Assembly: GCA_023251855.1 (NCBI GenBank)
Contig: JAHEYA010000001.1
Coordinates: 1-36,145 of the forward strand
Length of the DNA: 36,145 nucleotides
DNA from: Bacteroidota bacterium
GTDB lineage: Bacteria; Bacteroidota; Bacteroidia; 2-12-FULL-35-15
Direction of reading: 5' to 3'
Each line of letters opens with the position of its first letter. Position 1 is the stretch's first letter. The notes under the pieces are model-generated. The model was not told the DNA's origin. It searched no databases and was given only the letters and a program-made list of their open reading frames with translations. This document shows, one piece after another, positions 21,021 to 36,145 of the stretch. The translations under genes were made by a program, and so were the position numbers.

Positions 21021-22145
21021 ATGAATATCCAACACTTATTACAACGGGCTTTAAATTTCGAATTTTTATCAATCGAAGAAGGTGTTTTTTTATTCAAAAG
21101 CGCTCCAACAGCTGATTTGATGTTTGTTGCCAATGAGCTCCGTAAAATTCAAAAACCGGATGGAAAAGTTACTTGGCAGATTGATCGAAATGTAAATACA
21201 ACCAATGTATGTATCGCAAATTGTAAGTTTTGCAATTTTTATCGCATTCCAGGACATAAAGATGCTTACATAACAGATATTGCCACCTACAAGAAAAAAA
21301 TTGACGAGACGTTTCAATTAGGGGGTGATCAGCTTTTATTACAAGGTGGTCATCATCCCGGTTTAGGTTTAAAGTTTTATGTTGACCTTTTCAAAGAATT
21401 AAAAAGTTTATACCCGCATTTAAAACTTCATACACTCGGGCCACCGGAAGTAGCACACATTACCAAACTCGAAAAATCAACTCATGCTGAGGTTTTGAAA
21501 GCGCTGAAAGATGCAGGAATGGACAGCATGCCCGGTGCCGGTGCTGAAATATTGAATGACAGAGTACGTAGATTAATTTCAAAAGGAAAATGTACCGGTC
21601 GCGAATGGTTGGATGTAATGCGGGCTGCACACCAATTAAACATTACTACTTCAGCCACCATGATGTTTGGCCATATTGAAACTATTGAAGAACGTTTCGA
21701 ACATTTGGTACTGATACGTCAGGTGCAAAGCGAAAAACCGAAAGATGCAAAAGGGTTTTTGGCCTTTATTCCATGGACCTTTCAGGATGATGGAACTTTG
21801 TTAAGGCGCCATAAAGGAATTAAAAACAGTACTACTGGCGATGAATATATTCGTATGATAGCAATGAGTCGCATTATGCTACCCAATGTAATTAACATAC
21901 AAGCCAGTTGGCTTACTGTTGGTAAAGATGTCGCCAAACTTTGTTTGCATTCGGGTGCAAATGATTTTGGAAGTATTATGATAGAAGAAAACGTAGTATC
22001 GGCAGCAGGTGCTCCGCATCGCTTTACTGCCAAAGGAATTCAAGAGGCTATTCAGGAAGCTGGTTTTGAACCACAACTGCGAACTCAGCAATATGATTTC
22101 CGCGAATTACCTGCTGATATGGTGGAGCAGGTGATCAATTATTAA
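21021..22145 (+). CDS. Radical SAM enzyme of the MqnC/MqnE (CofH-like) family, i.e. futalosine-route menaquinone biosynthesis. I cannot discriminate MqnC from MqnE by eye.
   Basis: CxxxCxxC cluster motif CIANCKFCNFYR, preceded by QIDRNVNTTNV. 374 aa. GGDQLLLQGGHHP and FGHIETIEERFEHL are typical of this family. Confidence 0.7.
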   Translation: MNIQHLLQRALNFEFLSIEEGVFLFKSAPTADLMFVANELRKIQKPDGKVTWQIDRNVNTTNVCIANCKFCNFYRIPGHKDAYITDIATYKKKIDETFQLGGDQLLLQGGHHPGLGLKFYVDLFKELKSLYPHLKLHTLGPPEVAHITKLEKSTHAEVLKALKDAGMDSMPGAGAEILNDRVRRLISKGKCTGREWLDVMRAAHQLNITTSATMMFGHIETIEERFEHLVLIRQVQSEKPKDAKGFLAFIPWTFQDDGTLLRRHKGIKNSTTGDEYIRMIAMSRIMLPNVINIQASWLTVGKDVAKLCLHSGANDFGSIMIEENVVSAAGAPHRFTAKGIQEAIQEAGFEPQLRTQQYDFRELPADMVEQVINY

Positions 22146-22295: not shown

Positions 22296-22784
22296 TTAGG
22301 CTTGTAATAACTTTTCAATATCGAATTTTTTCATTTTAAGAAACGCATTCATCACCTTTCCTGCTTTTGTTGGGTCGCTCATTAATTTAGGTAATACACT
22401 CGGAATGATCTGCCAGGAGAGGCCGTATTTGTCCTTTAACCAACCACACTGACCGGGTTGCCCACCATCACATAATTTAGTCCAGTAATGATCTATTTCT
22501 TCTTGCGTTTCACAAAACACCTGAAACGAAACAGCTTCGTTAAATTTAAAAATCGGACCGCCATTTAGCGCAGTAAAAGACTGTCCATTGATTGTAAAAG
22601 CAACTGTTAGTGCTGTTCCTTCTTTCTGTCGGTGAAATTCAAAACCTTCTTTTCCATACCGACTGATGCTATCAATTTTAGAATTCTTAAAAATCGAAGT
22701 ATAGAAAAGATCGGCTTCTTCAGCTTGGTTGTCGAACCACAAACAAGGTGTGATGGGCTTTGCAGTCATTTTTTTAATAGACAA
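22296..22784 (-). CDS. VOC/glyoxalase-superfamily protein of the PhnB / '3-demethylubiquinone-9 3-methyltransferase domain' (PF06983-like) family
   Basis: 162 aa. Motifs ITPCLWFDNQAEEA..FYTSIF, ALTVAFTINGQSFTALNGGP, FNEAVSFQVFCETQEEIDHYW, and CGWLKDKYGLSWQIIP. Confidence 0.8.
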   Translation of the reverse strand: MSIKKMTAKPITPCLWFDNQAEEADLFYTSIFKNSKIDSISRYGKEGFEFHRQKEGTALTVAFTINGQSFTALNGGPIFKFNEAVSFQVFCETQEEIDHYWTKLCDGGQPGQCGWLKDKYGLSWQIIPSVLPKLMSDPTKAGKVMNAFLKMKKFDIEKLLQA

Positions 22785-22795
22785 CTAATTCGATT

Positions 22796-24397
22796 TTAGT
22801 GACTGAAATTAGACGCAGCAACCGTTAAACCACCGGTAGACGCATTATTAGTTAACTGCCATGCAGTATTGTTTGCATAATCAATTGTAATGGATGATTG
22901 ATAAAAAAGGGGAAAAGTATTAGCCCCTCGCCAAAAAGTATTTCCTTTTATCGCAATATTCGCAAAGGTGGCTCCATTAGTGCTTGATGTTATTTTTATA
23001 CAATAGGCATCACTGGTTTGCATTCCAAAAAGATTATCAGCAATACTGTATATTTTAAAACCGGAAGTTGTAGGGTCGATATTAATAGGTGGCGTACTTG
23101 TATTTATACCGCTTCTGAATTGATTATTTGATATGGTTGCTTGATTGCAAACCTGAGTAGCATTGTTGATGAAAATGCTGCTGCTACTGCAACGGTTGCC
23201 GGCAAACACAAAATCGCTCTGGAGCGCATAGATTGAACTTGTACCAATATAACAACCTGAAATGTTTGAAATGGCACACTGGTTTACTGCTTCACTACCA
23301 ATGGTAGTGCCTGTTATGGAGGAACCCACAAACTCATTACATCTCGGAAGTGTACAGTTTGAAACAGAGGAGTGAACAACAGAACCTAACAAATAGGTGA
23401 ATCCGGTGGTAACTCCTGAAAACTGACAATTATCAAATTTGCTGTCGTATCCTAATCGTGGGCAATTGCCTGTGAACGTGCAATTAATGAATTCTCCCCA
23501 TTGACAATCCACATCAACAGCATTAAAAGTAACGCCATTAAAAACACAGCTATTCCCAACAGAAAGAATGTAAGTGCCATTTCCTGTGATAGTGCCACCG
23601 CTTACTACAAGGTGGTTTGCATTCAGTCCGGTGTAGTTTGCCCCAAGAGTTATCGTTCCCTGAACAAGTGCATAATTATCTGATGGAACAGTTATAGAAG
23701 TATAATTGGACAAGGTTAAAATATAGATGCCAGCGCCTGTAGCACCTGTTGCGCCCGTCATTCCACCACCCGGTCCTGTAGCACCAACAAAACCAGTTGT
23801 ACCGGTACCACCTGTACTTCCCGCACCGGGCCCTGTTGGTCCTGTTATGCCGGGAGATCCTGTTCCTGTAGCACCTGTACTTCCTGCACCTGTAGCACCA
23901 ACAGAACCTGTACCACCCATAGCACCTGTTGCGCCAGTGTTTCCTTTAATACCAGTTGCGCCAATAGCCCCTGCCGCTCCTGTAGCACCAGCAACACCAC
24001 CGTTTGAAGCAAATAAAGCATAAGGAACACTAAGTAATTGTTTGTTTCCGGTAATGCTGTAGGTTGTGCCACCTGTTGGGTCAGTTTCTGTTTTAATAAA
24101 AAATATTCCTGATGCCCAGTTGATCGCAGAAAAAACACCTGTAACAACTGTTCCAGTACCTATTTCAATTGTTGCAAGCCCATTGATATTTGTAGTTGTT
24201 GTTTGTGTTTCAACATAAACTGCTGTACCGGTTGAGCTACCTTGTAAAATACTTACCTTCATTCCAACACTTGTGCTTGCAACAAGAACATTGTTAGCAT
24301 TGCGTATAACAGCCTGGTAGCTCATTTTTTGCGGTGCCTGAGCAAAAGTGGACGTGATAATAAGCAGATTTGTTAATGTAACGATTAGGTTTTTCAT
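22796..24397 (-). CDS. Secreted collagen-like (Gly-X-Thr) repeat protein with a conserved N-terminal domain and a Cys-rich C-terminal region that looks like a parallel beta-helix
   Basis: Signal peptide ending TFAQ/AP. N-terminal domain [14 protein letters not shown]...SVPYALFA. About 90 aa of GXY triplets ([28 protein letters not shown]...). Repetitive NC.F / GN..S.SS.I turns follow ([37 protein letters not shown]). No T9SS tail is recognisable. Confidence 0.75.
23729..24001 (-). repeat. Collagen-like GXY triplet repeat (coding); a local GC-rich island
   Basis: aa 133-223 of the 533-aa protein. 13 uninterrupted GXY triplets are followed by interrupted runs. The opposite strand gives the artefactual PAPVAPV ORF. 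Confidence 0.85.
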
Positions 24398-24402
24398 TGT
24401 AT

Positions 24403-24915
24403 TTAATTTTTAATTATTTTGAATGTTTTAACTTCGTTGTTATTCCTGAATACGTTAATAAAATAAATACCGGAGGCCAATTTGTCCATAGAAACAGGAG
24501 TTTCATCGGTTTCGATTTTTTTATTTAAAAGCAGTTTGCCTTGAATATCGAAAAGAGAAAAAGTGAAAATTTCAGATTTACTGTTTACTATTTTCAATAA
24601 AATAAAATCAGTTGCAGGGTTTGGATAAACAGAAGCGGTGAGTTCAATACCAATATCATCAATACCTGTTATATTAAAAATTTCGTAAGGTTGTTGTATC
24701 CCTTGTGTGATAACCCCTCCGGAGCCGGTTGCTGTAATATAATCTGTTTGCCCTATGGTATAACTTGCAGCCCCGCCTATTCCTGAAGCATCACCACCTG
24801 TAGCTTCAGTACCTTGTTGTCCAAAGAGGTTGGTGATTCGGAATGATAGTATTAAAAAAGCAAATAAAATTGTTTTTGTTGTACTCATATTCTTTTGGTT
24901 TCGAATAGCTAACAA
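24403..24915 (-). CDS. Small secreted protein with a T9SS C-terminal sorting domain (Por_Secre_tail type)
   Basis: The C-terminal ~80 aa (nt 24406-24645) read [14 protein letters not shown]...[11 protein letters not shown]...[10 protein letters not shown]...KTFKIIKN. The N-terminal part has a [17 protein letters not shown]...GIQQPYEI motif. The true start is probably the ATG at 24886-24888 ([16 protein letters not shown]). Confidence 0.85.
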
Positions 24916-25860: not shown

Positions 25861-26613
25861 TCACTTGCGCTTTTTTATCAACTCTAAAATTCCATTGATA
25901 AATGTAAGAGGATGAATAGGGTTTCCCGGAACATATAAATCAATTTTGTATTTACTTAAAAAACGTCTGTTCAGTGCAGGACTTCCTTCAAATATTCCCC
26001 CGCTGATGGCATCTATGCCGGCGAGAATAATAATTTTTGGTTCAGGAGTTGCGTCATAACAGATTTGTAGCGGCTCTGCCATATTTTCTGAAACAGAACC
26101 TGTGATTACAATTCCATCTGCATGGCGGGGCGAAGCAACAAATTCAATTCCGAAACGACCCATATCAAAGTTCACATTGCCGCAAGCGTTCAGTTCCAAC
26201 TCACAACTGTTATCGCCTCCTGCTGATACTTGTCTTAACTTTAAAGAGCCACTGAAATATTCAAAAGTTTCTTTTCGAATCAAATCAGGATTTAATTCAA
26301 TCGGCTTATCCTCTCCTTCTCTAATAATGAGTCGTTCTCTTTCGTTAGAGGAAATTTTATAATCGGTTGTAAATTTTATTTTGTTAGGAAAAGCAAAAGC
26401 ACATTCGCCACAAAATGTGCATTTACCCAAATCAATTTTAACAGGACTTGTGTTGATTGCTCCTGTGGGACATAAATCTACAAGTTCCTGCTCATTCACT
26501 TTTTCAGAACTTATTATAGGTCTGCCCCGAAAAATTCCAGGCACCTCTGCTTTCGTTATATCGGGGATATATTGTTTTCCCTGATGAAAAAGTATTTTAA
26601 TATTTTTAATCAT
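25861..26613 (-). CDS. Fusion of a single-cluster ferredoxin remnant (HycF/NuoI-like) to a HycG/NuoB-like small subunit that lacks the canonical proximal [4Fe-4S] ligands
   Basis: The N-terminus has LCPTGAI ... CTFCGECAFAFP. The C-terminal part aligns to HycG: RFGIEFVASPRHADGIVITG and PEPKIIILAG. Three cluster motifs are altered: VDCGGCNGCE has become VSAGGDNSCE, GACGNSGG has become GIDAISGG, and PGCPP has become PGNPI. Confidence 0.82.
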   Translation of the reverse strand: MIKNIKILFHQGKQYIPDITKAEVPGIFRGRPIISSEKVNEQELVDLCPTGAINTSPVKIDLGKCTFCGECAFAFPNKIKFTTDYKISSNERERLIIREGEDKPIELNPDLIRKETFEYFSGSLKLRQVSAGGDNSCELELNACGNVNFDMGRFGIEFVASPRHADGIVITGSVSENMAEPLQICYDATPEPKIIILAGIDAISGGIFEGSPALNRRFLSKYKIDLYVPGNPIHPLTFINGILELIKKRK

Positions 26614-26624
26614 TTTTTTACTTT

Positions 26625-28121
26625 TTACAAATCATGTCCGCAATAAGATAAATCAAAACTTTTGTTGCAAATTGGAAAATCAGAAATTTCATTGTTGCGA
26701 ACAGCCAAAGCCAAAGCCAGCCAGTTGTGCATGGATGGATCTTTCACTTTGTAGTGTACCAGTTCGCCTTTTTCATCCGTGATAGCACAATGACAAATTT
26801 CTCCCCGCCATCCTTCCACCAATGAAATGACAAATGAATCAGATGAAGGAGGAGATAAAATAGTTCGATTCTTATTTTCTGAAGGAATATTCTCTGATAA
26901 TTTTCTGATGTATCCTATGGATTGTTTTATTTCTTCTTTTCGTATTTGCGCTCTTGAATAAACATCTCCGTGATTTTTAATAATCGGCTGATGATTTAAT
27001 GAAGAATAAAAATTGTGGGGATGTGATGAGCGAATATCCCGATTAATGCCACTCATTCTTGCCGACATTCCCACTGTACCGATGGATGACGCCTGTTCGG
27101 TTGTTACAATTCCTGTTTTTTCAAATCGCGCAAGCACAGTAGGCAAAGTAAATGTTTCTTTGCACATCTCATCAAAGTCGGGCTCATAATCGTCAAAAAG
27201 TTTATGAAGTGTATCACATAATGTTTTATGAAGAGGAAAATGATTTTTTCCTGCACGGATCAACCCTTTTGCAAGGCGGTTTCCGCACCATATTTGAAAA
27301 TAATTTATAACAGGTGTGCGTAACCTTCCGAAAACAGAACTTCCGAGTTGGTATGCAACATCCGTACACATAGCGCTCAAATCGCCTGTGTGAATAGCTA
27401 TGCGTTCTAACTCCAACGCAACTGTTCTTGCGTATTGCAACTCTTCATCTGCTTTGTAATTACATAAACTTTCCCAGAGATTAACGAAACAGGTGGTGTG
27501 TCCGGAAACTGCGTCACCTGAAATGTTTTCGGCAAGTGTGATGCGTTGCAATAATTTTTTCTTTTCAAGAAATAAGTTTTCAATTCCCCGATGCTGAAAT
27601 CCTAATTGAATTTCCAAATGAAGAATCTGTTCTCCGTTGCAGATGAAGCGGAAATGACCAGGTTCAATTACTCCTGCATGAATGGGACCTACCCCTACTT
27701 CGTGCAGCTCTTCGCTTTCAATTTTGTAAAATGGATAATTAGCAACTGTGGAATTTTTATCTGCTCTGTTGAATGAAAAACGTGTAGGTTTAAGCCAGGT
27801 GTGATCGGTGTAATTAATACCAAAATTTTCGTGAATCTCTCTTTCAAAAATGTGAAAAGCAAGGTGATGGTGTGTGAACGAAGAAAGTGTTTGATGTTGT
27901 TCAACTATAGAAGATGAAATATAAATAGTTCCTTCTTTATCATTTGCTATGCAGCAAATAAGTTTAATTTTTCCTTGAAAACGAAATCCATAATAGTTTA
28001 CGCAATGATAATGCGATTCCTTGAGCAGAGAAGTATTATGTTCCAGAAACTGCTCGTATCCTAACACAGGAATAGAGAGTACAGGAATACATTGATTATT
28101 TTTTACTTCGAGGTGATTCAT
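26625..28121 (-). CDS. HycE/HyfG/NuoCD-like 'large subunit' (fused NuoC-like and NuoD-like domains) lacking all four [NiFe] cysteine ligands
   Basis: NuoC-like segment FEREIHENFGINYTDH. Large-subunit core VGVGPIHAGVIEPGHFRF...LHLEIQLGFQHRGIE. The L1 motif position reads LAENISGDAVSGH (HycE: LAERVCGICGFAH). The C-terminal L2 position reads SFDLSYCGHDL (HycE: SLDPCYSCTDR). Confidence 0.85.
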   Translation of the reverse strand: MNHLEVKNNQCIPVLSIPVLGYEQFLEHNTSLLKESHYHCVNYYGFRFQGKIKLICCIANDKEGTIYISSSIVEQHQTLSSFTHHHLAFHIFEREIHENFGINYTDHTWLKPTRFSFNRADKNSTVANYPFYKIESEELHEVGVGPIHAGVIEPGHFRFICNGEQILHLEIQLGFQHRGIENLFLEKKKLLQRITLAENISGDAVSGHTTCFVNLWESLCNYKADEELQYARTVALELERIAIHTGDLSAMCTDVAYQLGSSVFGRLRTPVINYFQIWCGNRLAKGLIRAGKNHFPLHKTLCDTLHKLFDDYEPDFDEMCKETFTLPTVLARFEKTGIVTTEQASSIGTVGMSARMSGINRDIRSSHPHNFYSSLNHQPIIKNHGDVYSRAQIRKEEIKQSIGYIRKLSENIPSENKNRTILSPPSSDSFVISLVEGWRGEICHCAITDEKGELVHYKVKDPSMHNWLALALAVRNNEISDFPICNKSFDLSYCGHDL

Positions 28122-28122
28122 A

Positions 28123-29553
28123 TTAGTGCGGTAAATTTTTTATTGCATCGTTAATTAAATCGATAAATTCGGCCGGAGGATTAAAACCGAGATAAATAAC
28201 TAATCCAAGCAGGACAAACTGAGAAATGGATTCGTACCATTTTATTTTTTCTACCTCTTCATCATTAAATTCAACAGCAGGTGTGAACAAAAGTTTGAAA
28301 ATATTTTTCCCGAAGGCCCATATAATGATAGTGAGCAAAATCAAAAGAACAATCAGAACAAAAAGATAATGAGCTTCAAACAGCGATCTGAAAATCATAA
28401 ACTCGCTGATAAAAAGCCCCGATGGCGGCATAGCGGCACTACAAAAAAAGGCAAGCAATAATACCATTGCACCTGCGAGATTATATTTAAAATAATTTCC
28501 AACATCGTAAATGCTTTTGCTTTTATAGATGCGATAAACTTGTCCCATCTGAAAAAACATACTTGATTTCGCAAAAGCGTGCAAGATAATATGAAGAATA
28601 GCGGCATAATAACCAATTCCGCCTGCAACTAAACCAAGCATAACGATCCCTGCGTGTTCAATACTGGAATATGCCAGCATCCGTTTAATATTTTTTACTT
28701 TGAGCATATACACTGCTGAGACAAAAACAGAGAGCAAAGCCGCAATCATTATAATATGATTCGCCCACAAATGGAGTGAGGTGTGTGCAATTATTTCATA
28801 GAAGCGGAATATTCCTATGAATCCTACATTCATCAACACACTTCCCAAAAGCGCACCAGCAGGTGATGGGGCTTTATCTTTTGCGTCAATGCCCGCTGTA
28901 TACATTGGTACGAGACCAAGTTTTGCGGTATATCCTGTAAAAATGAAAATGAAAGCCAAACGAAGCCAAAAGATATTCAGACCACTCGCATTATTCAATA
29001 AATCAGGGAATGAAAGATCGGTGTGACCCGCCTGCTGTAAAGCGATACTGAGAAATAATATGCCTATAAAAACAAAAGTGATACTGATGGAACAAACAAA
29101 AATATATTTCCAGGTACCTTCTAGTGTACGGCTATTTCTTCGGTGGTAAATTAATGCAGAAGCGGAAAGTGTTGTCAGCTCGACAAAAATCCAAGTTACT
29201 GCTACGTGATTGGAAAGATATGCTGCGCTGATTGCAGCGATCAGCATGGTCATTGCAGAAAAATAAATTCCACGTTGTTGAGGGATGTCTTTGTGTTTAA
29301 GAAAATAAACATAACTGTGGTAATATGCAGGAATTGAAATAATGCTGAGCGTAATCAGCAGTAGAATTGACAATGCATCGGGTTTGAAGAAGCCGAAGAA
29401 CTCATCAACGTTGCGGTGATTGTATTCATAGGCTGTGAAAGCACATTGTCCGGTTATAAAAATTGCAACAAGCATATAATTCAGCAAACGGTTCCTGTTT
29501 AAAAACAACAGTGCGCTGATAATGATTGCTCCTGTTAAATATTCTGCTATCAT
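28123..29553 (-). CDS. Antiporter-like membrane subunit (HyfF/HyfD / NuoN/NuoM / MrpD family)
   Basis: 476 aa and polytopic. Motifs WIFVELTTLSASALI (TM5 Glu), GYTAKLGLVPMY (TM7 Lys), and LHAFAKSSMFF (TM8 Lys). Confidence 0.85.
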   Translation of the reverse strand: MIAEYLTGAIIISALLFLNRNRLLNYMLVAIFITGQCAFTAYEYNHRNVDEFFGFFKPDALSILLLITLSIISIPAYYHSYVYFLKHKDIPQQRGIYFSAMTMLIAAISAAYLSNHVAVTWIFVELTTLSASALIYHRRNSRTLEGTWKYIFVCSISITFVFIGILFLSIALQQAGHTDLSFPDLLNNASGLNIFWLRLAFIFIFTGYTAKLGLVPMYTAGIDAKDKAPSPAGALLGSVLMNVGFIGIFRFYEIIAHTSLHLWANHIIMIAALLSVFVSAVYMLKVKNIKRMLAYSSIEHAGIVMLGLVAGGIGYYAAILHIILHAFAKSSMFFQMGQVYRIYKSKSIYDVGNYFKYNLAGAMVLLLAFFCSAAMPPSGLFISEFMIFRSLFEAHYLFVLIVLLILLTIIIWAFGKNIFKLLFTPAVEFNDEEVEKIKWYESISQFVLLGLVIYLGFNPPAEFIDLINDAIKNLPH

Positions 29554-29561
29554 ATTATTTT

Positions 29562-30191
29562 TTAATCTTTCAGATTTTGTAATTGTTCCACATCCACATC
29601 TTTCAGCACATCTCCTATTTTGTTTACAAAAATTCCAAGAACAAGAACGCTTACAAAAAGGTCGAGCAGTATCCCGGTGTTCACCAACATAGGCATTTCA
29701 TTTCCTACGGCAAGCGACAAAATAAAAACGCCATTTTCGATGACCAGGAATCCCATCACATGTGTGATAATTTTTTTTCTAGTGATGATGATGTACAACC
29801 CAGTGAATAATGAGGAAAATGCTACCACAAAATAAATTTTATTTAAGTGTGGGTCCTCAATTATATTAGAAAGCAGGAAGGTAACAATGATGATGAACGT
29901 TACAATGATCAGGGATATAAAATTGGGCAGAAAAGGTTCTACTTCGCGGGTAATTCTGTTTCGCCTTATGATATAATTCAGTAAAAGGGGAACTGCAATG
30001 GTTTTAAAAACAATGGTTTCAAATAAAATAAAAATAAGGTTCAGGATGTTTATTTCTTTCAATTCGATAAAACTCACTCCGAATAAAAGAAGTCCCTGAA
30101 AGACAAGTATCTTAATGTAACTGCCCATACGATTGGCAATGCTGAGATAAATCAGCGTCATTGCAAAAGTGATTAGTAAAACATTGATCAT
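29562..30191 (-). CDS. HyfE-like small membrane subunit (hydrogenase-4 component E / NuoK-related)
   Basis: 209 aa. RKKIITHVMGFLVIENGVFILSLAV compares with E. coli HyfE RNILRQIFGYCLMENGSHLVLALL. The C-terminal VDVEQLQNLKD compares with LDVNNLTALKG. Confidence 0.8.
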   Translation of the reverse strand: MINVLLITFAMTLIYLSIANRMGSYIKILVFQGLLLFGVSFIELKEINILNLIFILFETIVFKTIAVPLLLNYIIRRNRITREVEPFLPNFISLIIVTFIIIVTFLLSNIIEDPHLNKIYFVVAFSSLFTGLYIIITRKKIITHVMGFLVIENGVFILSLAVGNEMPMLVNTGILLDLFVSVLVLGIFVNKIGDVLKDVDVEQLQNLKD

Positions 30192-30198
30192 AGTTTTT

Positions 30199-31104
30199 TT
30201 AAATAAATTTCCCTATTACCATCAAAACTCCAAAAAATATCATCAGGGCAACAGAAGTTAGTGTGAAAATAAATTGTGCATTATGATTCATTCGGAATCG
30301 TGCCGAGAAGGATTCAAGGATACCTACAATCACAGCAAAGATTATCTGGACCGCAAAGAATATAGGTATTGTCAAGTACATTTGAAAATTGGCAATAAAA
30401 AAATTTGCAATGAGCGCACCGTACATGGCAAATTTCAGGTTGGTAGCGAACAGAATTAACCCCAAATCAAAACCGCTATTGTCAAGAATCATCACTTCGT
30501 GAATCATCGTTAATTCAAGATGTGTTTTCGGGTCGTCAATAGGCATACGGCTGTTTTCAATCATCGCAATCATTATCAAAATGAATGTTGCCAGAACTCC
30601 AAGCGCATACGAGATGTATGAGCCAAAGTGCAATGAAATAAAAATGTCATGGAAGGAAGTGTGTCCGGTGAATAAAGCAAACGAACCCATCAAAATAAAA
30701 AATGCAGGCTCAGCCAACATAGAATACAATGCTTCGCGACTTGCTCCTATTCCTTCAAAACTGCTTCCTGTATCCATTGCCGAAATGATAGAGAAAAATT
30801 TACCAAGTGCAAGAACATATGCGAAAAAAACAAAATCACCTTCAAAAGAAATAATTCCTTTGTATTGCCCGAAGGGAATTACCAGGATCGCCATCAGCAC
30901 GGAAGCGAAATAAATGCTGGGGGCGATCTGAAAAACAAAACTGGTTGTTTTACTGTACACCGCATCTTTTTTCCACAAGCGTATAACGTCCTTCATGGGC
31001 TGAAATATCCCCGGACCCTTTCTCCCTGAAGCAATGCTTTTTGTCCGGATAATAATACCCATGAAAAATAAACTTGTAATAATTATCAAAGCAAAACTTA
31101 TCAT
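30199..31104 (-). CDS. NuoH/HyfC/HycD-like membrane subunit
   Basis: 301 aa with about 8 TM helices. The N-terminal signature is RTKSIASGRKGPGIFQPMKDVIRLWKK (NuoH-type R.GP...QP..D..KL..K). Confidence 0.85.
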   Translation of the reverse strand: MISFALIIITSLFFMGIIIRTKSIASGRKGPGIFQPMKDVIRLWKKDAVYSKTTSFVFQIAPSIYFASVLMAILVIPFGQYKGIISFEGDFVFFAYVLALGKFFSIISAMDTGSSFEGIGASREALYSMLAEPAFFILMGSFALFTGHTSFHDIFISLHFGSYISYALGVLATFILIMIAMIENSRMPIDDPKTHLELTMIHEVMILDNSGFDLGLILFATNLKFAMYGALIANFFIANFQMYLTIPIFFAVQIIFAVIVGILESFSARFRMNHNAQFIFTLTSVALMIFFGVLMVIGKFI

Positions 31105-31105
31105 A

Positions 31106-33139
31106 TTACAATTGATTTAAAAATTTCATTAATGATATTATTGCTCCATACAAAAATGGTAGTCCTATGACTAATGTAATAAAAATAAAGCCATACAGTA
31201 TGTAGAATTGCGGGTTGCCATTTTGCAGAAAACGAAATTTCCCAAAAAAATATTTCATCTGCTTAATCGGAATATCAATTAATAATTCTTCCATTTTATC
31301 CTGAGGGTGGGTTTCGTAGGAACTTTTTTCAGGGAAAATACTTTTTATCAACACCTCCTTTTTATGAATAGATAAAAACGGTTTGGCAAGTTTGCGGTAA
31401 GTACGAATAAAAGAATTTGCAGTGTACTGCATTTTCGCTGTATTGCCAACATACCCACATCCCCAAGTGGTTGCAAACGATTCCGGCTTTTGCTTTGTAA
31501 TTTGTTTACGGGTAAAAAAGATAATTCCCGCCAGCGAAATAAATCCCATAGCGCACCATCCGATGTATTGCATCGTGTACGCTATATCAGAAACGGGCGG
31601 CATCGTTTCTGTTGCAACAGATAATTTATCCTTAAATAATTTCAGCGGTTCAGATAACCAGTGAAGAAAAAAAATCGGGAATAAACCGATAGCAACAATT
31701 AACCCCATTACCAGATACATCGGAATAAGTTTTGCAGTATTTGCTTCGGATGGCTGATGAGAAAAACTGTGTTGTGGGCTGCCGAGAAATACCACACCGA
31801 ATGCCTTGGTAAAGCATAAGAGCGCAAGTCCGCCAATAAGTACCAATCCAAAAACAGAGGACAAAAGCGACAATGTTGAAAACAGATTTCCATGATTCAT
31901 TCCCTTGAACAAACCAAAATAAATCAAAAACTCAGAGGCAAATCCGTTAAATGGAGGGAGCCCGCATATAGCAAGTGCTGCAACCAGAAATAAAACAGAG
32001 GTGTGAGGCATTCGTTTCGCTAATCCGCCTAAGTGTTCAATATTCATCGTATGAGTAGACTGGTAAACATTGCCGGATCCATAAAACAAAAGTGATTTAA
32101 ACAGTGAGTGATTTAATACATGAAGCATAGCTCCGGCAAACCCGAGAGTTGTAAGAAGAAAATTATTTGTTCCAATCCCTATTGTTCCTAATCCTATTCC
32201 AATTCCAATGATTCCGATGTTCTCAATGCTGTGGTAGGCAAGAAGTTTTTTCAGATTATGTTGAACGATTGCGAGCATCACTCCGTAAATTCCTGAAACA
32301 ACAGAAATAAAAAGGATAATAAAACCTAATAAAACATAATCCGTTTTGATCAATAGAATCATTCGAAGGATTCCGTAAATGCCAATTTTGATAATCACTC
32401 CGGACATAATCCCTGAAACATGCGAAGGTGCAGCAGGATGTGCATAAGGAAGCCAGGTATGAAACGGAACAAATCCCGCCTTGATTGCAAATGCAGTGAA
32501 GAAGCAAAGAAACAAAGCCAAACTTGTGAGCGGAGGAAAAGAAGTTGAGAATTCGGTGATCGCTCTGAAGTCATAGGAATTCATCCGTGTTCCTACCCAT
32601 ATAAAACCAAGATAAAGAAACACCATGCTTACATGCGCCTGAATTAAATAATTGACCCCTGCTTTTATACAATCTTGTTTATAATGTTCAAAAATTATCA
32701 AAAAGAAGGACGACAATGCCATAATTTCCCATGCGAATAGAAATACAATTGCATTTTGCACAACACAGATTATTGTCAGCGCAGATTGAATTCCGAGATA
32801 TGCAATGCAATGGAGAGTAATATTTGAAGATTGTTCCCTGTAGGATCTCATATATTGCAAACCGTACAATGCACCTGTGATCATTGTGAAATTAATGAGC
32901 AATATAAACCATCCTGAAAGCCCATCAATCCGAATTGGAATTTCGCCTGTTACAAAAGTCCCCTTTAAAATAAACTCTATCTTATCACCAAGTAATGCTT
33001 TCACTGAAATAATACCCCCGATGACTGCAATCAGGATTACTGTCAAAAGAGTTACTATTCCCTTCCATTTTACGTTGAGAAAAGGAATCAGCAGAATGCT
33101 TATTGCAACAATCAACAGAGATATCGCAATCATTACCAT
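31106..33139 (-). CDS. Antiporter-like membrane subunit, HyfB/HycC/NuoL/MrpA family (copy 2)
   Basis: 677 aa. Motifs AWEIMALSSFFLI, FAIKAGFVPFHTWLPYAHPAAPSHVSG, LNHSLFKSLLFYGSG, and TWGCGY in the C-terminal extension. Its start codon overlaps the upstream stop (ATGA at 33137-33141). Confidence 0.88.
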   Translation of the reverse strand: MVMIAISLLIVAISILLIPFLNVKWKGIVTLLTVILIAVIGGIISVKALLGDKIEFILKGTFVTGEIPIRIDGLSGWFILLINFTMITGALYGLQYMRSYREQSSNITLHCIAYLGIQSALTIICVVQNAIVFLFAWEIMALSSFFLIIFEHYKQDCIKAGVNYLIQAHVSMVFLYLGFIWVGTRMNSYDFRAITEFSTSFPPLTSLALFLCFFTAFAIKAGFVPFHTWLPYAHPAAPSHVSGIMSGVIIKIGIYGILRMILLIKTDYVLLGFIILFISVVSGIYGVMLAIVQHNLKKLLAYHSIENIGIIGIGIGLGTIGIGTNNFLLTTLGFAGAMLHVLNHSLFKSLLFYGSGNVYQSTHTMNIEHLGGLAKRMPHTSVLFLVAALAICGLPPFNGFASEFLIYFGLFKGMNHGNLFSTLSLLSSVFGLVLIGGLALLCFTKAFGVVFLGSPQHSFSHQPSEANTAKLIPMYLVMGLIVAIGLFPIFFLHWLSEPLKLFKDKLSVATETMPPVSDIAYTMQYIGWCAMGFISLAGIIFFTRKQITKQKPESFATTWGCGYVGNTAKMQYTANSFIRTYRKLAKPFLSIHKKEVLIKSIFPEKSSYETHPQDKMEELLIDIPIKQMKYFFGKFRFLQNGNPQFYILYGFIFITLVIGLPFLYGAIISLMKFLNQL

Positions 33140-35148
33140 CAGACGAAATTAAATAACGTTCCTAAAAATACCAAGATAAAAAAAAACACTCCATACAATA
33201 CATACATCTGTATTTTACCATTCTGAATGAATTGAAAATAGTTCAGACTAAACAACAAACGGTTTGTGAAACGATAAATAATATTGTTTTCAAAAAAATC
33301 AATATAATGAGATGTATGACTTCTTGTTTGCGGAAAGATTTCATGAGGTGCAAGTTCGGTATATTTTTTCTTCTCCGTTACAATAAACCACAGTAATTTG
33401 CCCAGTGTTTTTGAAAAAGATTTACCCGTGAACTGCATCTTGCTGTAAGGCGCAACATAACCGCAGCCCCAGGTAGTATTTAGCTGAGCAACGCGATTTC
33501 GGGTAAATAAGTTCCGAATAAGAAAAACTAATATCAGCAGAATTAAAAACATCAAAGAATATTTTCCGACCTCGGCAATTAATGATATTGTTGGTACCAT
33601 TGATTGAAAGATGGAAACATCGGATCGTTGTATGGATGGAACAACCGAATTAATGATACAGAGCAGAACAGAAAAATAAAACTGCGGGAACAAACCTATG
33701 GAAAGCATAATCAGGATGATTAAAAATTGCGGTATGCGCATTATCAAAGAAACTTCGGTAGGTGTGTGATGAAATTCTTCGCGCAGGTTTCCCAAAAATA
33801 GGATTCCAAAACTTTTTGTAAATGTAAGCAACGATAACCCGCCAATGATAGCCAATCCCGACAGAGAAAGAATCATCAATACAGAATGAAACAATCCCAT
33901 TGTTTTTATTCCATTCAAGAATCCCATATAGATTAAAAATTCAGAAACAAACCCATTGAAAGGCGGCAGACCGCCAATAGCAAGCGCGCCTATAAGAAAC
34001 AACACAGCGGTTTGTGGCATCTTATGAACTAAACCGCCAAGTTTTTCCATATCGCGGGTGTGTGTTTGCTGATAAACAGAACCTGCAGAAAAAAACAAAA
34101 GCGATTTGAAAAGCGAATGATTCAGAGTATGTAACAAAGCACCGCTTAACCCGATAACGAGTAGTAAAGGATTATTCAGTCCCATCCCGATTAATGCAAG
34201 GCCAATTCCTGCTCCGATGATTCCAATATTTTCAATCGTGCAATACGCCAGCATTTTTTTTAAATCCCGGTGAACGGCAGCATTCAGGATTCCGTAAACC
34301 CCAGTTATTATCGAAAGAATCAAAAGCGATTCGCCAATCAACATCAAATCATTTTTCAGCATCAATGCTACACGGATAATTCCATAAATGCCAAGTTTGA
34401 CAATTACTCCCGACATCACTCCTGAAATATGTGAAGGAGCAGCAGGATGAGCGTGAGGAAGCCATGAGTGCAGAGGAATAAATCCCGCTTTGATTCCAAA
34501 GCCGATAAAAAATAAAAGAAACAACCAGAAGTTTGAATTGGCATTGAAAAAAATTCCAATTGAATAAAAATCACATGAACCTTCGGAGAAATACACCCAA
34601 AGAAATGCGATTGTTAAAAACACAACTCCGATGTGCATTTGCACTAAATAATTCATTCCCGCCCTGAGTGTTTGTTTGTTACTATGTTCAAATATTACAA
34701 GTAAAAAAGAGGAGAGCGACATCAGTTCCCAAGCAATGAGAAACGCCAAACTATGCTGGAGCATACAAACCCATAACATTGATGATTGAAAAATCAAAAA
34801 TAAAATCCAGTGCAGTGAAAGATTTGCTTTTTGTTCACTATAGGATTTCATATAACCAATACCGTATAGCGCACCATTAATGCAAGTCAGGTTTATTATC
34901 AGCATAAACCACGCTGATAACGCGTCTATCCGTAATGGAACATTTCCGAAAAAAGGAGGGCCTGCAATAATCATTTCAAACGGATTTCCAATGAGAACAT
35001 TTACAGCAAGAATGGAAGTAACAGAAGCAATAAACAAAACAAAAATGAAATTAATAACTGCTTTTATTTTGGAAGGGAATAGTGGAATTAAAACAATGCC
35101 CACGCTTGTTAAAATTAAAGATGAAACCACCAACTGAACACTTCCCAT
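33139..35148 (-). CDS. Antiporter-like membrane subunit, HyfB/HycC/NuoL/MrpA family (copy 1)
   Basis: 669 aa. Motifs AWELMSLSSFLLV, GFGIKAGFIPLHSWLPHAHPAAPSHISG, LNHSLFKSLLFFSAG, and TWGCGY. It is a paralog of the following gene. Confidence 0.88.
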   Translation of the reverse strand: MGSVQLVVSSLILTSVGIVLIPLFPSKIKAVINFIFVLFIASVTSILAVNVLIGNPFEMIIAGPPFFGNVPLRIDALSAWFMLIINLTCINGALYGIGYMKSYSEQKANLSLHWILFLIFQSSMLWVCMLQHSLAFLIAWELMSLSSFLLVIFEHSNKQTLRAGMNYLVQMHIGVVFLTIAFLWVYFSEGSCDFYSIGIFFNANSNFWLFLLFFIGFGIKAGFIPLHSWLPHAHPAAPSHISGVMSGVIVKLGIYGIIRVALMLKNDLMLIGESLLILSIITGVYGILNAAVHRDLKKMLAYCTIENIGIIGAGIGLALIGMGLNNPLLLVIGLSGALLHTLNHSLFKSLLFFSAGSVYQQTHTRDMEKLGGLVHKMPQTAVLFLIGALAIGGLPPFNGFVSEFLIYMGFLNGIKTMGLFHSVLMILSLSGLAIIGGLSLLTFTKSFGILFLGNLREEFHHTPTEVSLIMRIPQFLIILIMLSIGLFPQFYFSVLLCIINSVVPSIQRSDVSIFQSMVPTISLIAEVGKYSLMFLILLILVFLIRNLFTRNRVAQLNTTWGCGYVAPYSKMQFTGKSFSKTLGKLLWFIVTEKKKYTELAPHEIFPQTRSHTSHYIDFFENNIIYRFTNRLLFSLNYFQFIQNGKIQMYVLYGVFFFILVFLGTLFNFV

Positions 35149-35171
35149 AACTTTTTTATTCCCGTTATAAA

Positions 35172-35252
35172 TTATTTATTGAATTTACTTTCGGCAAAAA
35201 TAATTTCTTTCATAATTCTTTCTTTGATTTTTGACCATTGGTTTTCGGTCAT
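35172..35252 (-). CDS. Possible 26-aa small ORF (MTENQWSKIKERIMKEIIFAESKFNK) 23 nt upstream of the first antiporter-like gene
   Basis: ATG at 35250-35252 and TAA at 35172-35174. It is below the ORF-track size cutoff. There is no homology support, and a candidate -7 box (35195-35202) lies inside it. Confidence 0.12.
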   Translation of the reverse strand: MTENQWSKIKERIMKEIIFAESKFNK

Positions 35253-35262
35253 AAATTGGATG

Positions 35263-35463
35263 CTAAAATACTGTTTTATTCTTGTTTTTGTTTTCTTGTA
35301 TGTAGGATGATTTGGCTCTTTTGATTTTACCCCCTGAGGTTAGTTTTGTGGTTGGTTGGGCAAAGGCAAATGTGTCAAATGCACGACTGTTAAAGAAGTT
35401 TTCAAAAATGTGAAGTGAGTTTTTTTGTTTTTGTCTTTTGCTGGGGTTTGCGAAGTGGCGCAT
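35263..35463 (-). CDS. Possible 66-aa basic, low-complexity small protein, or else a non-coding leader of the Ehr-like operon
   Basis: The ORF begins about 10-15 nt downstream of a TATCTTTG -7 box (35481-35488). The sequence is K/N/Q-rich and I recognise no family. Confidence 0.2.
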   Translation of the reverse strand: MRHFANPSKRQKQKNSLHIFENFFNSRAFDTFAFAQPTTKLTSGGKIKRAKSSYIQENKNKNKTVF

Positions 35464-35480
35464 TAAACTGTCTCACCGCA

Positions 35481-35488
35481 CAAAGATA
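35481..35488 (-). promoter_or_regulatory. Candidate -7 box (TATCTTTG on the - strand) that could drive the Ehr-like operon through a leader of about 320 nt
   Basis: Plus strand reads CAAAGATA. The octamer is identical to the box in front of the radical SAM gene at 20998-21005. Confidence 0.3.
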
Positions 35489-35685
35489 ATTAATTGAAAC
35501 GAACTTTGATTTTATAAGGAAATCCGCATTGTACACATAAACTGTCTATGCCGGTGGTGTGTCTTGTCTTATGAAACGATTGTCGAGGTCGGTAATCATT
35601 TTAAAATGACGATCAATAACTCTGCCGATCCAATATAATTAAGCCCGCTTTAATAATATGTTAAACATCAAAAAACACAAAAAAT

Positions 35686-36090: not shown

Positions 36091-36145
36091 GTTTGTTATG
36101 AATTACTAATTTATACTAATTAAATACGCATCTATTGTTATGTTA

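Follow-up and report, generated by a model that had tools for sequence, protein, structure and literature searches.

How does a complex built on the plan of hydrogenases and complex I work when most of the cysteines that would hold the electron-carrying clusters of its peripheral arm are missing? The question is raised by a gene in a stretch of DNA from a Bacteroidota bacterium (GenBank assembly GCA_023251855.1, contig JAHEYA010000001.1, positions 1 to 36,145), the whole of which, at 36,145 nucleotides (nt), we call the window. The gene encodes a protein of 250 amino acids (aa) that resembles the small subunit of these enzymes. A first-pass annotation of the window had described it as a ferredoxin remnant that keeps exactly one [4Fe-4S] site, fused to a NuoB/HycG-like domain deprived of its own cluster ligands. 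Following up this description, we conclude that the small subunit very probably has one cluster, lacks the proximal cluster and is part of an energy-converting hydrogenase-related (Ehr) complex. The Ehr identity is an addition to the annotation, which had not named that class.

The open reading frame (ORF) is intact, running from an ATG start through 250 aa to a stop codon at 25861-25863. Pfam places PF01058 (NuoB/20 kDa) at aa 136-245 (E 4e-19, 69 bits vs a cut-off of 27) and PF00037 (Fer4) N-terminal of it, at aa 58-73. The NCBIfam models for NuoB, NuoI and HycF match as well, all of them far under their curated cut-offs: the best NuoB score is 85 bits against a required 116, and the HycF model (PRK12387) covers aa 23-98. 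In phmmer searches with the NuoB part, MbhJ (E 5e-22) and HycG (7e-18) were found, and NDUFS7/Nqo6 were also matched. The AlphaFold2 (AF2) model of the protein (pLDDT 91.5, pTM 0.89) is a single body in which both domains are packed together. Foldseek ranks HycG (7z0s_G) at the top with this model, also returns MbhJ (6cfw_J), and gives TM-scores of 0.7-0.8 against NDUFS7/Nqo6 chains; the C-terminal domain superposes on MbhJ with a TM-score of 0.83 and a root-mean-square deviation of 1.9 Å, and on HycG too. The fusion of a NuoI/HycF-derived ferredoxin remnant to a NuoB/HycG-like domain is thus borne out. All the motifs that the annotation had quoted are present, with nucleotide ranges accurate to 3-6 nt: LCPTGAI at aa 47-53, CTFCGECAFAFP at aa 65-76, VSAGGDNSCE at aa 129-138, GIDAISGG at aa 199-206 and PGNPI at aa 229-233.

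How many clusters can the ferredoxin part hold? NuoI, HycF and MbhN canonically carry two CxxCxxCxxxCP motifs, and four of these eight cysteines are present in the small subunit. They are C48, C65, C68 and C71, the only cysteines within residues 1-136. Residues 14-91 align with residues 21-104 of MbhN (6cfw_N) over 78 residues, the FRG motif included, and the second motif of NdhI/NuoI with the helix that follows it aligns with residues 59-102, so that the homology extends outside the cysteines. Motif 1 of MbhN ('CvgCrmCvtvCP') is placed against '-vnEqeLvdlCP', where the CxxCxxC is gone and the CP cysteine is kept; motif 2 ('CvmCkqCvdvCP') is placed against 'CtfCgeCafaFP', where the CxxCxxC is kept and the CP cysteine has given way to F75. 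In the 2x[4Fe-4S] ferredoxin fold, a cluster takes three cysteines from the CxxCxxC of its own motif and the fourth, the CP cysteine, from the other motif. By this sharing rule, C48, C65, C68 and C71 make up one complete site and the other site is left free of ligands, as the annotation had proposed. The pattern holds in relatives. In an alignment of 86 proteins (the small subunits of the 80 loci described below, of the window and of five earlier loci), all four cysteines are 100% conserved; position 75 is a cysteine in nine proteins, none of which has a first-motif CxxCxxC. Among 29 divergent sequences (alignment A1), C48, C68 and C71 are invariant and C65 is nearly so. In Nqo9, the CxxCxxC of the second motif and the first CP cysteine bind N6b. 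If this carries over to the small subunit, as its homology to Nqo9/NdhI suggests, the cluster retained would be the medial, N6b-equivalent one, adjoining the former N2 pocket.

The NuoB part, on the other hand, no longer has a cysteine site for the proximal, N2-equivalent cluster. When aligned to MbhJ, HycG and NDUFS7, ligand 1 (the first cysteine of the CxxC) is D134, ligand 2 is the retained C137, ligand 3 (of the GxC) is D201 and ligand 4 (of the PGCP) is N231. The stretches concerned read SGSCNGCDIE, GACPTGG and PGCPP in MbhJ, CGGCNGCEIE, GACGNSGG and PGCPP in HycG, and CCAVE in NDUFS7, compared with GGDNSCELE, GIDAISGG and PGNPI in the query. The annotation had counted at least two and probably three of the four ligands as lost; at residue level it is exactly three, the upper end of that estimate. 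Judging from these alignments, the proximal site is now a conserved polar set, D134/C137/D201/N231. Other ways of holding a cluster in this domain were considered and rejected. A new cluster built from C144 and C185 is contradicted by position 144, which varies between A, C, S and T, and by C185, which is not invariant in Bacteroidota and is not a cysteine in MbhJ or HycG. A cubane still bound by the D/C/D/N set is very unlikely, as one cysteine is left in the site of Bacteroidota and none in a second clade, introduced below, that has D-E-D-S instead.

Is this pattern a property of a family or an accident of one genome? A word-indexed protein search returned thousands of relatives, and conservation was counted in the best 120 clusters, which have 80-88% identity, are nearly all exactly 250 aa long and come from Chitinophagaceae, Sphingobacteriales and other Bacteroidota. 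Here, C48, C65, C68, C71, D134 and N231 are invariant, D201 is found in 119 of the 120 and C137 in 118. A scan of genomes, limited to one per species, turned up at least 534 candidate stretches coding for a relative, and the best 80 loci (68-85% identity) were analysed. These are of the Bacteroidota type and derive from aerobes and anaerobes of many orders (Chitinophagales, Saprospirales, Flavobacteriales, Cytophagales, Sphingobacteriales and Bacteroidales among others), with one Melioribacteraceae in addition. The proximal-site residues are D-C-D-N in almost all of the 80 genomes, with Ala137 in two. At all eight positions, both synonymous codons occur across genomes; pairwise dS (synonymous divergence) of the small subunit is saturated (>1.7), and its ratio of nonsynonymous to synonymous divergence (dN/dS) is ~0.08. 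Both samples show the fusion and the ligand pattern to be conserved in orthologues, and the strong purifying selection, with eight positions invariant or nearly so, upholds the earlier view that the loss was selected rather than random. It is extremely improbable that the gene is a product of a frameshift or assembly error, or a remnant of a pseudogenised hydrogenase operon. Thousands of independent assemblies contain the 250-aa fusion, and 80 genomes have it within an intact seven-gene operon, which rejects a sequencing artefact; an invariant ligand pattern despite saturated synonymous change rejects random decay, and the low dN/dS and the confident AF2 model speak against both.

The operon consists of seven closely spaced genes on the same strand, the last of which encodes the small subunit (Table 1). 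All related loci that extend far enough have the order (B1)-B2-C-E-F-L-S, with S, the small subunit, always last. The two HyfB-like genes overlap by 1 nt, at 33139; both copies occur in most related loci and a single copy in some (e.g. L020, L023, L037, L067). The decisive feature is the large subunit. Compared with HycE, RVCGICGFAH has become NISGDAVSGH and DPCYSC has become DLSYCG, so that all NiFe cysteines are gone, as they are from the large subunits of 72 relatives. In nearly all of these 72, the motifs AE[NS]I[AST]GD..GH and F[ND]LSY[CSA]GHDL are found instead, and the cavity motifs VGP.HAG.IEPG.FRF, AE.I.GD....H and EGWRGEICH are very strongly conserved. Because its large subunit lacks all NiFe cysteines, we assign the complex, a relative of Hyf, MBH and complex I with six to seven subunits, to the Ehr class. 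The absence of cysteines from L1 (RxCGxCxxxH) and L2 (DPCxxCxxH/R), the operon content and the NuoC-NuoD and NuoI-NuoB fusions are all as in Ehr complexes. A group 4 [NiFe]-hydrogenase of the Hyf, Hyc, MBH or Ech kind would have NiFe cysteine ligands and a four-cysteine proximal site, both of which are missing here. As to NuoB/NDUFS7/NdhK, the protein has the sequence and fold of the family, with one of the four N2 ligands and a score below the NCBIfam equivalog cut-off.

The membrane subunits look far more conventional. The HyfF-like subunit keeps the equivalents of E144, K234, H322, H348 and E407 of NuoM, with K265 replaced by Asn (E. coli numbering). The hallmarks of Mrp-type antiporters (Glu in transmembrane helix TM5, Lys in TM7, Lys/Glu in TM12) are present, as judged on this subunit; the small-subunit families MrpB, C, E, F and G had no Pfam or NCBIfam match in the operon. 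In the NuoH-like subunit, two elements shared with HycD and ND1 are preserved, the DTGS.F..IGASREA stretch and the E..R.P.D....EL loop. In one metagenome-assembled genome of Draconibacterium, a second partial B2-C-E-F-like set directly follows the small-subunit gene (L028:10833-15836), which suggests a tandem duplication of the Ehr operon.

Table 1. Genes of the Ehr operon in the window, with the domains and ligand positions of its small subunit
Feature	Position	Strand	Detail
HyfB/NuoL-like antiporter-like subunit, copy 1, first operon gene	33139..35148	-	669 aa; hydrogenase 4 subunit B model, E 1e-149
HyfB/NuoL-like antiporter-like subunit, copy 2	31106..33139	-	677 aa; PF00361; hydrogenase 4 subunit B model, E 1e-147
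HyfC/HycD/NuoH-like subunit	30199..31104	-	301 aa; PF00146; best PDB matches HycD (7z0s_D) and MbhM
HyfE-like membrane subunit	29562..30191	-	209 aa; NCBIfam PRK11492, E 2e-16, below cut-off; weak PF00420
HyfF/NuoM-N-like antiporter-like subunit	28123..29553	-	476 aa; PF00361; hydrogenase-4 subunit F models
EhrL-like large subunit, NuoC-NuoD/HycE-like fusion without NiFe cysteines	26625..28121	-	498 aa; PF00329 and PF00346
EhrS-like small subunit, NuoI/HycF-like ferredoxin remnant fused to NuoB/HycG-like part	25861..26613	-	250 aa
Ferredoxin-like domain (NuoI/MbhN/HycF-derived), ~aa 24-98, with PxxFRG motif	26320..26544	-	MbhN alignment; NCBIfam HycF match
Four Cys predicted to bind a single [4Fe-4S] cluster	26401..26472	-	C48 26470-26472; C65 26419-26421; C68 26410-26412; C71 26401-26403
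F75, in place of the second CP cysteine	26389-26391	-	MbhN alignment
NuoB/HycG/MbhJ-like domain, aa 123-248	25870..26247	-	phmmer and Foldseek
Former proximal cluster site	25921..26214	-	D134 26212-26214; C137 26203-26205; D201 26011-26013; N231 25921-25923

How could a three-cluster arm have been reduced to one cluster? An exhaustive profile search against representatives at 50% identity gave 4003 matches, and 91 full-length representatives were aligned. They show a graded loss in four classes. Class i (P0127, P0134, P0136) has eight cysteines in the ferredoxin part and four in the NuoB part, with three clusters predicted; class ii (P0128 of Cloacimonadota, P0126 of Wallbacteria) has four and four, with two clusters predicted. 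In class iii, to which the window's family belongs, the ferredoxin part has four cysteines and those of the NuoB part are replaced, and in class iv, formed by stand-alone paralogues such as P0143, the ferredoxin part again has four and the NuoB part is strongly degenerate; one cluster is predicted for each of these. From this distribution, the loss of the distal ferredoxin cluster would appear to be older and more widespread than that of the NuoB cluster. The large subunit of the Cloacimonadota locus is as free of NiFe cysteines as that of the window. Since relatives with an intact set of four proximal cysteines (CCCC) and a one-cluster ferredoxin part have such a large subunit, loss of the proximal cluster came later than that of the NiFe site, and the likely order of loss is the NiFe site, then the distal cluster, then the proximal one.

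The proximal ligands are also missing in a second clade, with sequences named Acidimicrobiales, Gaiellaceae and Chloroflexi (P0166, P0271-P0389), to which we refer as Actinobacteriota/Chloroflexota. About 90 of its 120 clusters have D-E-D-S at the four ligand positions, and the four-cysteine ferredoxin part is always present. In a neighbour-joining (NJ) bootstrap from which the ligand columns were excluded, the two cluster-less clades were joined in 0 of 200 replicates, each standing beside CCCC-bearing relatives. Cluster-less and CCCC sequences differ consistently at essentially the ligand positions only, and a search for positions that co-vary with cluster loss found none beyond them. Asp134 and Asp201 are common to both clades. 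Clades differ in the residue at ligand position 2 (C, T, N, I, V, D or E) and at position 4 (N, H, D or S). The change from Cys to Asp at positions 1 and 3 is thus probably convergent, a tentative statement in view of the crude NJ tree. In this second clade, the operon has the order C-E-F-L-S-B (loci L002, L087-L090). The NuoH-like and HyfE-like genes of L089/L090 are fused to encode a 542-aa product, and in L002 and L089/L090 a Usp gene follows the operon.

The paralogues of class iv are found outside Hyf-like operons; their four-cysteine ferredoxin part is kept and the cluster loop of the NuoB part is deleted. In all four contexts with enough sequence (L004:3913-12395, from a contig of JGI 3300081835, P0151, P0193 and P0246, the last at L086:3023-5503), a gene for a ~115-aa protein is followed by the ferredoxin/NuoB-like gene and then by a gene for a SulP-family transporter of ~740 aa. 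In L004, these genes are followed by one for a porin-like protein, by DabA (PF10070, E 2e-218) and by a DabB-like homologue of NuoL; this cluster is an inorganic-carbon uptake locus. The SulP-DabAB linkage is the sole functional hint that emerged, tying this type of protein to complex-I-type modules that are not redox enzymes, by guilt by association and for a paralogue.

How does the window's complex compare with known systems? Published Ehr complexes lack NiFe cysteines, have Mrp-like subunits and are of unknown function (PMC6349859, PMC12342949, PMC10284858), and NuoC-NuoD and NuoI-NuoB fusions have been reported in several of their lineages (PMC6349859 Supplementary Note 4). Neither the NuoI-NuoB fusion nor the complex class is therefore new. 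With the window they share the cysteine-less, group-4-like large subunit, both fusions and an operon with HyfB/HyfF-, NuoH- and HyfE-like genes. Examples are the seven-gene ehr cluster GSU0739-0745 of Geobacter sulfurreducens (EhrA-1 ... EhrL, EhrS; PMC7894505) and Rv0081-Rv0087 of M. tuberculosis (PMC6728331), both of which we liken to the window operon by their published description; further carriers are Nitrospira and Margulisbacteria/Saganbacteria (PMC7894505, PMC6349859, PMC12342949, PMC6728331). For the FDH-Ehr of Margulisbacteria, a formate dehydrogenase/NuoEF-like partner has been proposed, whereas the window operon has none adjoining. The accessible Ehr literature, from which the primary papers (Coppi 2005, Marreiros 2013) lay outside our scope, covers the missing NiFe ligands only and describes neither a one-cluster small subunit nor the replacement of Cys by Asp. 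The one-cluster state with its recurrent Cys-to-Asp change seems to be a so far undescribed form of Ehr with a very wide distribution.

Among solved structures, the closest relatives are HycF and HycG of the E. coli formate hydrogenlyase (FHL; 7Z0S) and, in hydrogenase-4 (Hyd-4), HyfH and HyfI; as with the HycG match given above, similarity to HycG is clear, while that to HycF is weak. The membrane subunits of the operon likewise score best against hydrogenase-4 B, F and E models. HycF and HycG, however, are separate proteins whose three [4Fe-4S] clusters together feed a NiFe site, whereas the window's protein is fused and has ligands for one cluster; unlike FHL and Hyd-4, the operon also has no NiFe site and no HyfA or FdhF. 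In the membrane-bound hydrogenase (MBH) of Pyrococcus furiosus (6CFW), with MbhN and MbhJ, the latter is the best sequence match of the NuoB part. MBH and the related MBS (6U8Y) keep the distal, medial and proximal clusters, of which the window retains the medial-equivalent ligands only. In NDH-1, electrons pass from ferredoxin through N6a, N6b and N2 to quinone, that is, in distal, medial and proximal order (PMC7021789). NuoI/NdhI and NuoB/NdhK of complex I and NDH-1 have homologous folds and the same module order at the NuoD/NuoH junction; these enzymes have N6a, N6b and N2, whereas the N6a- and N2-equivalent ligands are missing in the window. Precedents for a non-redox use of antiporter-like subunits from the same superfamily, free of any Fe-S wire, are the Mrp antiporter (6Z16), DAB (DabAB) and NDH-1MS-CupA. 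Mrp and DAB, unlike the window operon, have no NuoB/NuoD/NuoI-like peripheral subunits, and Pfam recognises no DabA, Cup or MrpE/F/G genes in the window operon.

Is any partner gene conserved beside the operon? Clustering of 560 ORFs that flank the operon revealed no conserved partner. The top family, a Crp/Fnr-family regulator, reached at most 7 of ~80 loci; in ~6 of 80 it lies in divergent orientation ~150 bp upstream of the operon (e.g. L077:5079-5801, minus strand), and the window is without one. No flanking gene for an electron donor or acceptor is conserved in the Bacteroidota loci or in the Actinobacteriota-type operons. Rfam gave no match to a known RNA or riboswitch in the 537-nt intergenic region upstream of the operon (35149-35685), a region that shows no sequence conservation in related loci. 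The neighbours in the window (a YbjQ-like protein, a protein sorted by the type IX secretion system (T9SS), an MqnC-like radical SAM protein and an OmpA-like protein) are unrelated to the operon. The small protein with the T9SS C-terminal sorting domain (24403-24915, minus strand) adjoins a 533-aa protein (22796-24397, minus strand) that has a long collagen-like Gly-X-Y repeat region (GATGATG...) and no Pfam match. About 4 kb from the operon lie an MqnC/CofH-type radical-SAM gene of the futalosine route to menaquinone (21021-22145, plus strand) and a gene of PF06983, the 3-demethylubiquinone-9 3-methyltransferase family (22296-22784, minus strand), neither of which is conserved beside the operon in other genomes.

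But what does such a complex do? With ligands for one cluster and conserved aspartates in place of the cluster that feeds the active site, it cannot act as a conventional hydrogenase or complex I. That no canonical wire leads to a catalytic site, as the annotation had argued, holds up, and the large subunit is likewise without every NiFe cysteine. The three-cluster wire that runs from the ferredoxin to the active site in MBH, FHL and NDH-1 would be gone, and ion translocation would therefore not be coupled to through-electron transfer. With N2 gone, the retained cluster presumably lies more than 20 Å from any substrate cavity, too far for electrons to pass through. The complex most likely still moves ions, as the coupling residues of its NuoH-like and antiporter-like subunits are retained. 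The functional reading that we favour, at slightly less than even confidence, is an ion-translocating complex in whose peripheral arm electrons may no longer flow. Where the small, large and NuoH-like subunits meet, a carboxylate site has probably taken the place of an Fe-S cluster; its carboxylates might stand in for the -2 charge of a [Fe4S4(Cys)4] centre, or take up a cation or a proton. The surviving cluster would form the structural core of the NuoI-derived domain and may double as a one-electron switch beside the acidic site.

Several points weigh against an arm without electron flow. The highly conserved small subunit and the cavity motifs of the large subunit argue for a junction that still has a catalytic or mechanistic part to play; given this conservation, the absence of redox chemistry may be the wrong conclusion, and a metal for electron relay or catalysis could be bound by the conserved D/C/D/N or D/E/D/S residues. 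At median identities of 71-74%, the small and NuoH-like subunits are the most conserved of the operon, compared with 55-64% for the others, a ranking biased by the choice of loci for similarity of the small subunit. A complex free of electron flow would also call for some other driving reaction. On the side of the clusters, the content of the small subunit is deduced from its ligands, the N6b-equivalent label depends on the Nqo9 ligand assignment attributed to Sazanov and Hinchliffe 2006, and the NJ phylogeny is crude.

A rival reading is a shortened redox enzyme that still works, in which the pocket holds a mononuclear metal (Fe, Mn, Zn or another) that relays electrons from the remaining cluster to the cavity of the large and NuoH-like subunits, or is itself a new catalytic site that drives ion translocation. 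The residues that replace the ligands are conserved and chemically coherent (D-C-D-N or D-E-D-S), their appearance was probably convergent, and the strong conservation extends from the small subunit and the cavity motifs to the coupling loop of the NuoH-like subunit. However, ligand positions 2 and 4 vary between clades, no donor or acceptor module is encoded nearby, and the two aspartates may merely fill the pocket or imitate the charge of the lost cluster. We know of no precedent for a mononuclear-metal relay in this superfamily, and consider such an enzyme improbable. A redox sensor or gate, in which a soluble partner or damage by O2 or NO alters the [4Fe-4S] cluster and its state switches the membrane arm with no net electron throughput, is to our mind also unlikely, if a shade less so. 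This function, which the annotation had preferred, is in keeping with all that was observed. It would make sense of a cluster that is the last redox centre and adjoins a conserved acidic site, and of four cysteines whose conservation exceeds that of all else, even in the degenerate SulP-adjoining paralogues, for which the role of a regulatory partner is plausible; the occasional divergent Crp/Fnr-type regulator and the Usp genes after Actinobacteriota-type operons fit with it too. Invariant cysteines, however, are equally predicted if the cluster is purely structural, nothing here points to an output or a partner of such a sensor, and the family occurs in strict aerobes and anaerobes alike, a spread that gives no clear signal.

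The missing wire matters beyond this locus. Many genomes carry Ehr complexes, which are regularly labelled 'hydrogenase' or 'NADH dehydrogenase' in annotations; a very large, strongly conserved branch of them, covering most Bacteroidota orders and Actinobacteriota/Chloroflexota, is without the canonical three-cluster electron wire. For metagenomic surveys, this calls for caution: these genes should not be taken as evidence of H2 metabolism or NADH oxidation. The four cysteines and two aspartates, together with natural two-cluster relatives, provide handles for experiments, and cultured carriers are available in Chryseolinea serpens, Arcticibacter, Niastella vici and Flavihumibacter profundi.

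Finally, we would like to put forward a more speculative idea, to which we assign a low probability: the N2 pocket may have been rebuilt, probably at least twice independently (as D-C-D-N in Bacteroidota and as D-E-D-S in Actinobacteriota/Chloroflexota), as a carboxylate-lined site that loads a cation, metal or proton. These Ehr complexes would then form a class of their own among complex-I-like ion-translocating machines, driven or controlled by junction chemistry other than electron transfer, with the lone [4Fe-4S] cluster as a redox switch. If this is true, the chemistry at the junction could be cation binding or, as hinted by the SulP-DabAB-linked paralogue, possibly the interconversion of CO2 and HCO3-. 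Whatever becomes of this idea, the loss of the wire makes the question for this family less one of the substrate that Ehr reduces than one of the driving force behind a complex-I-type machine in which electrons do not flow.

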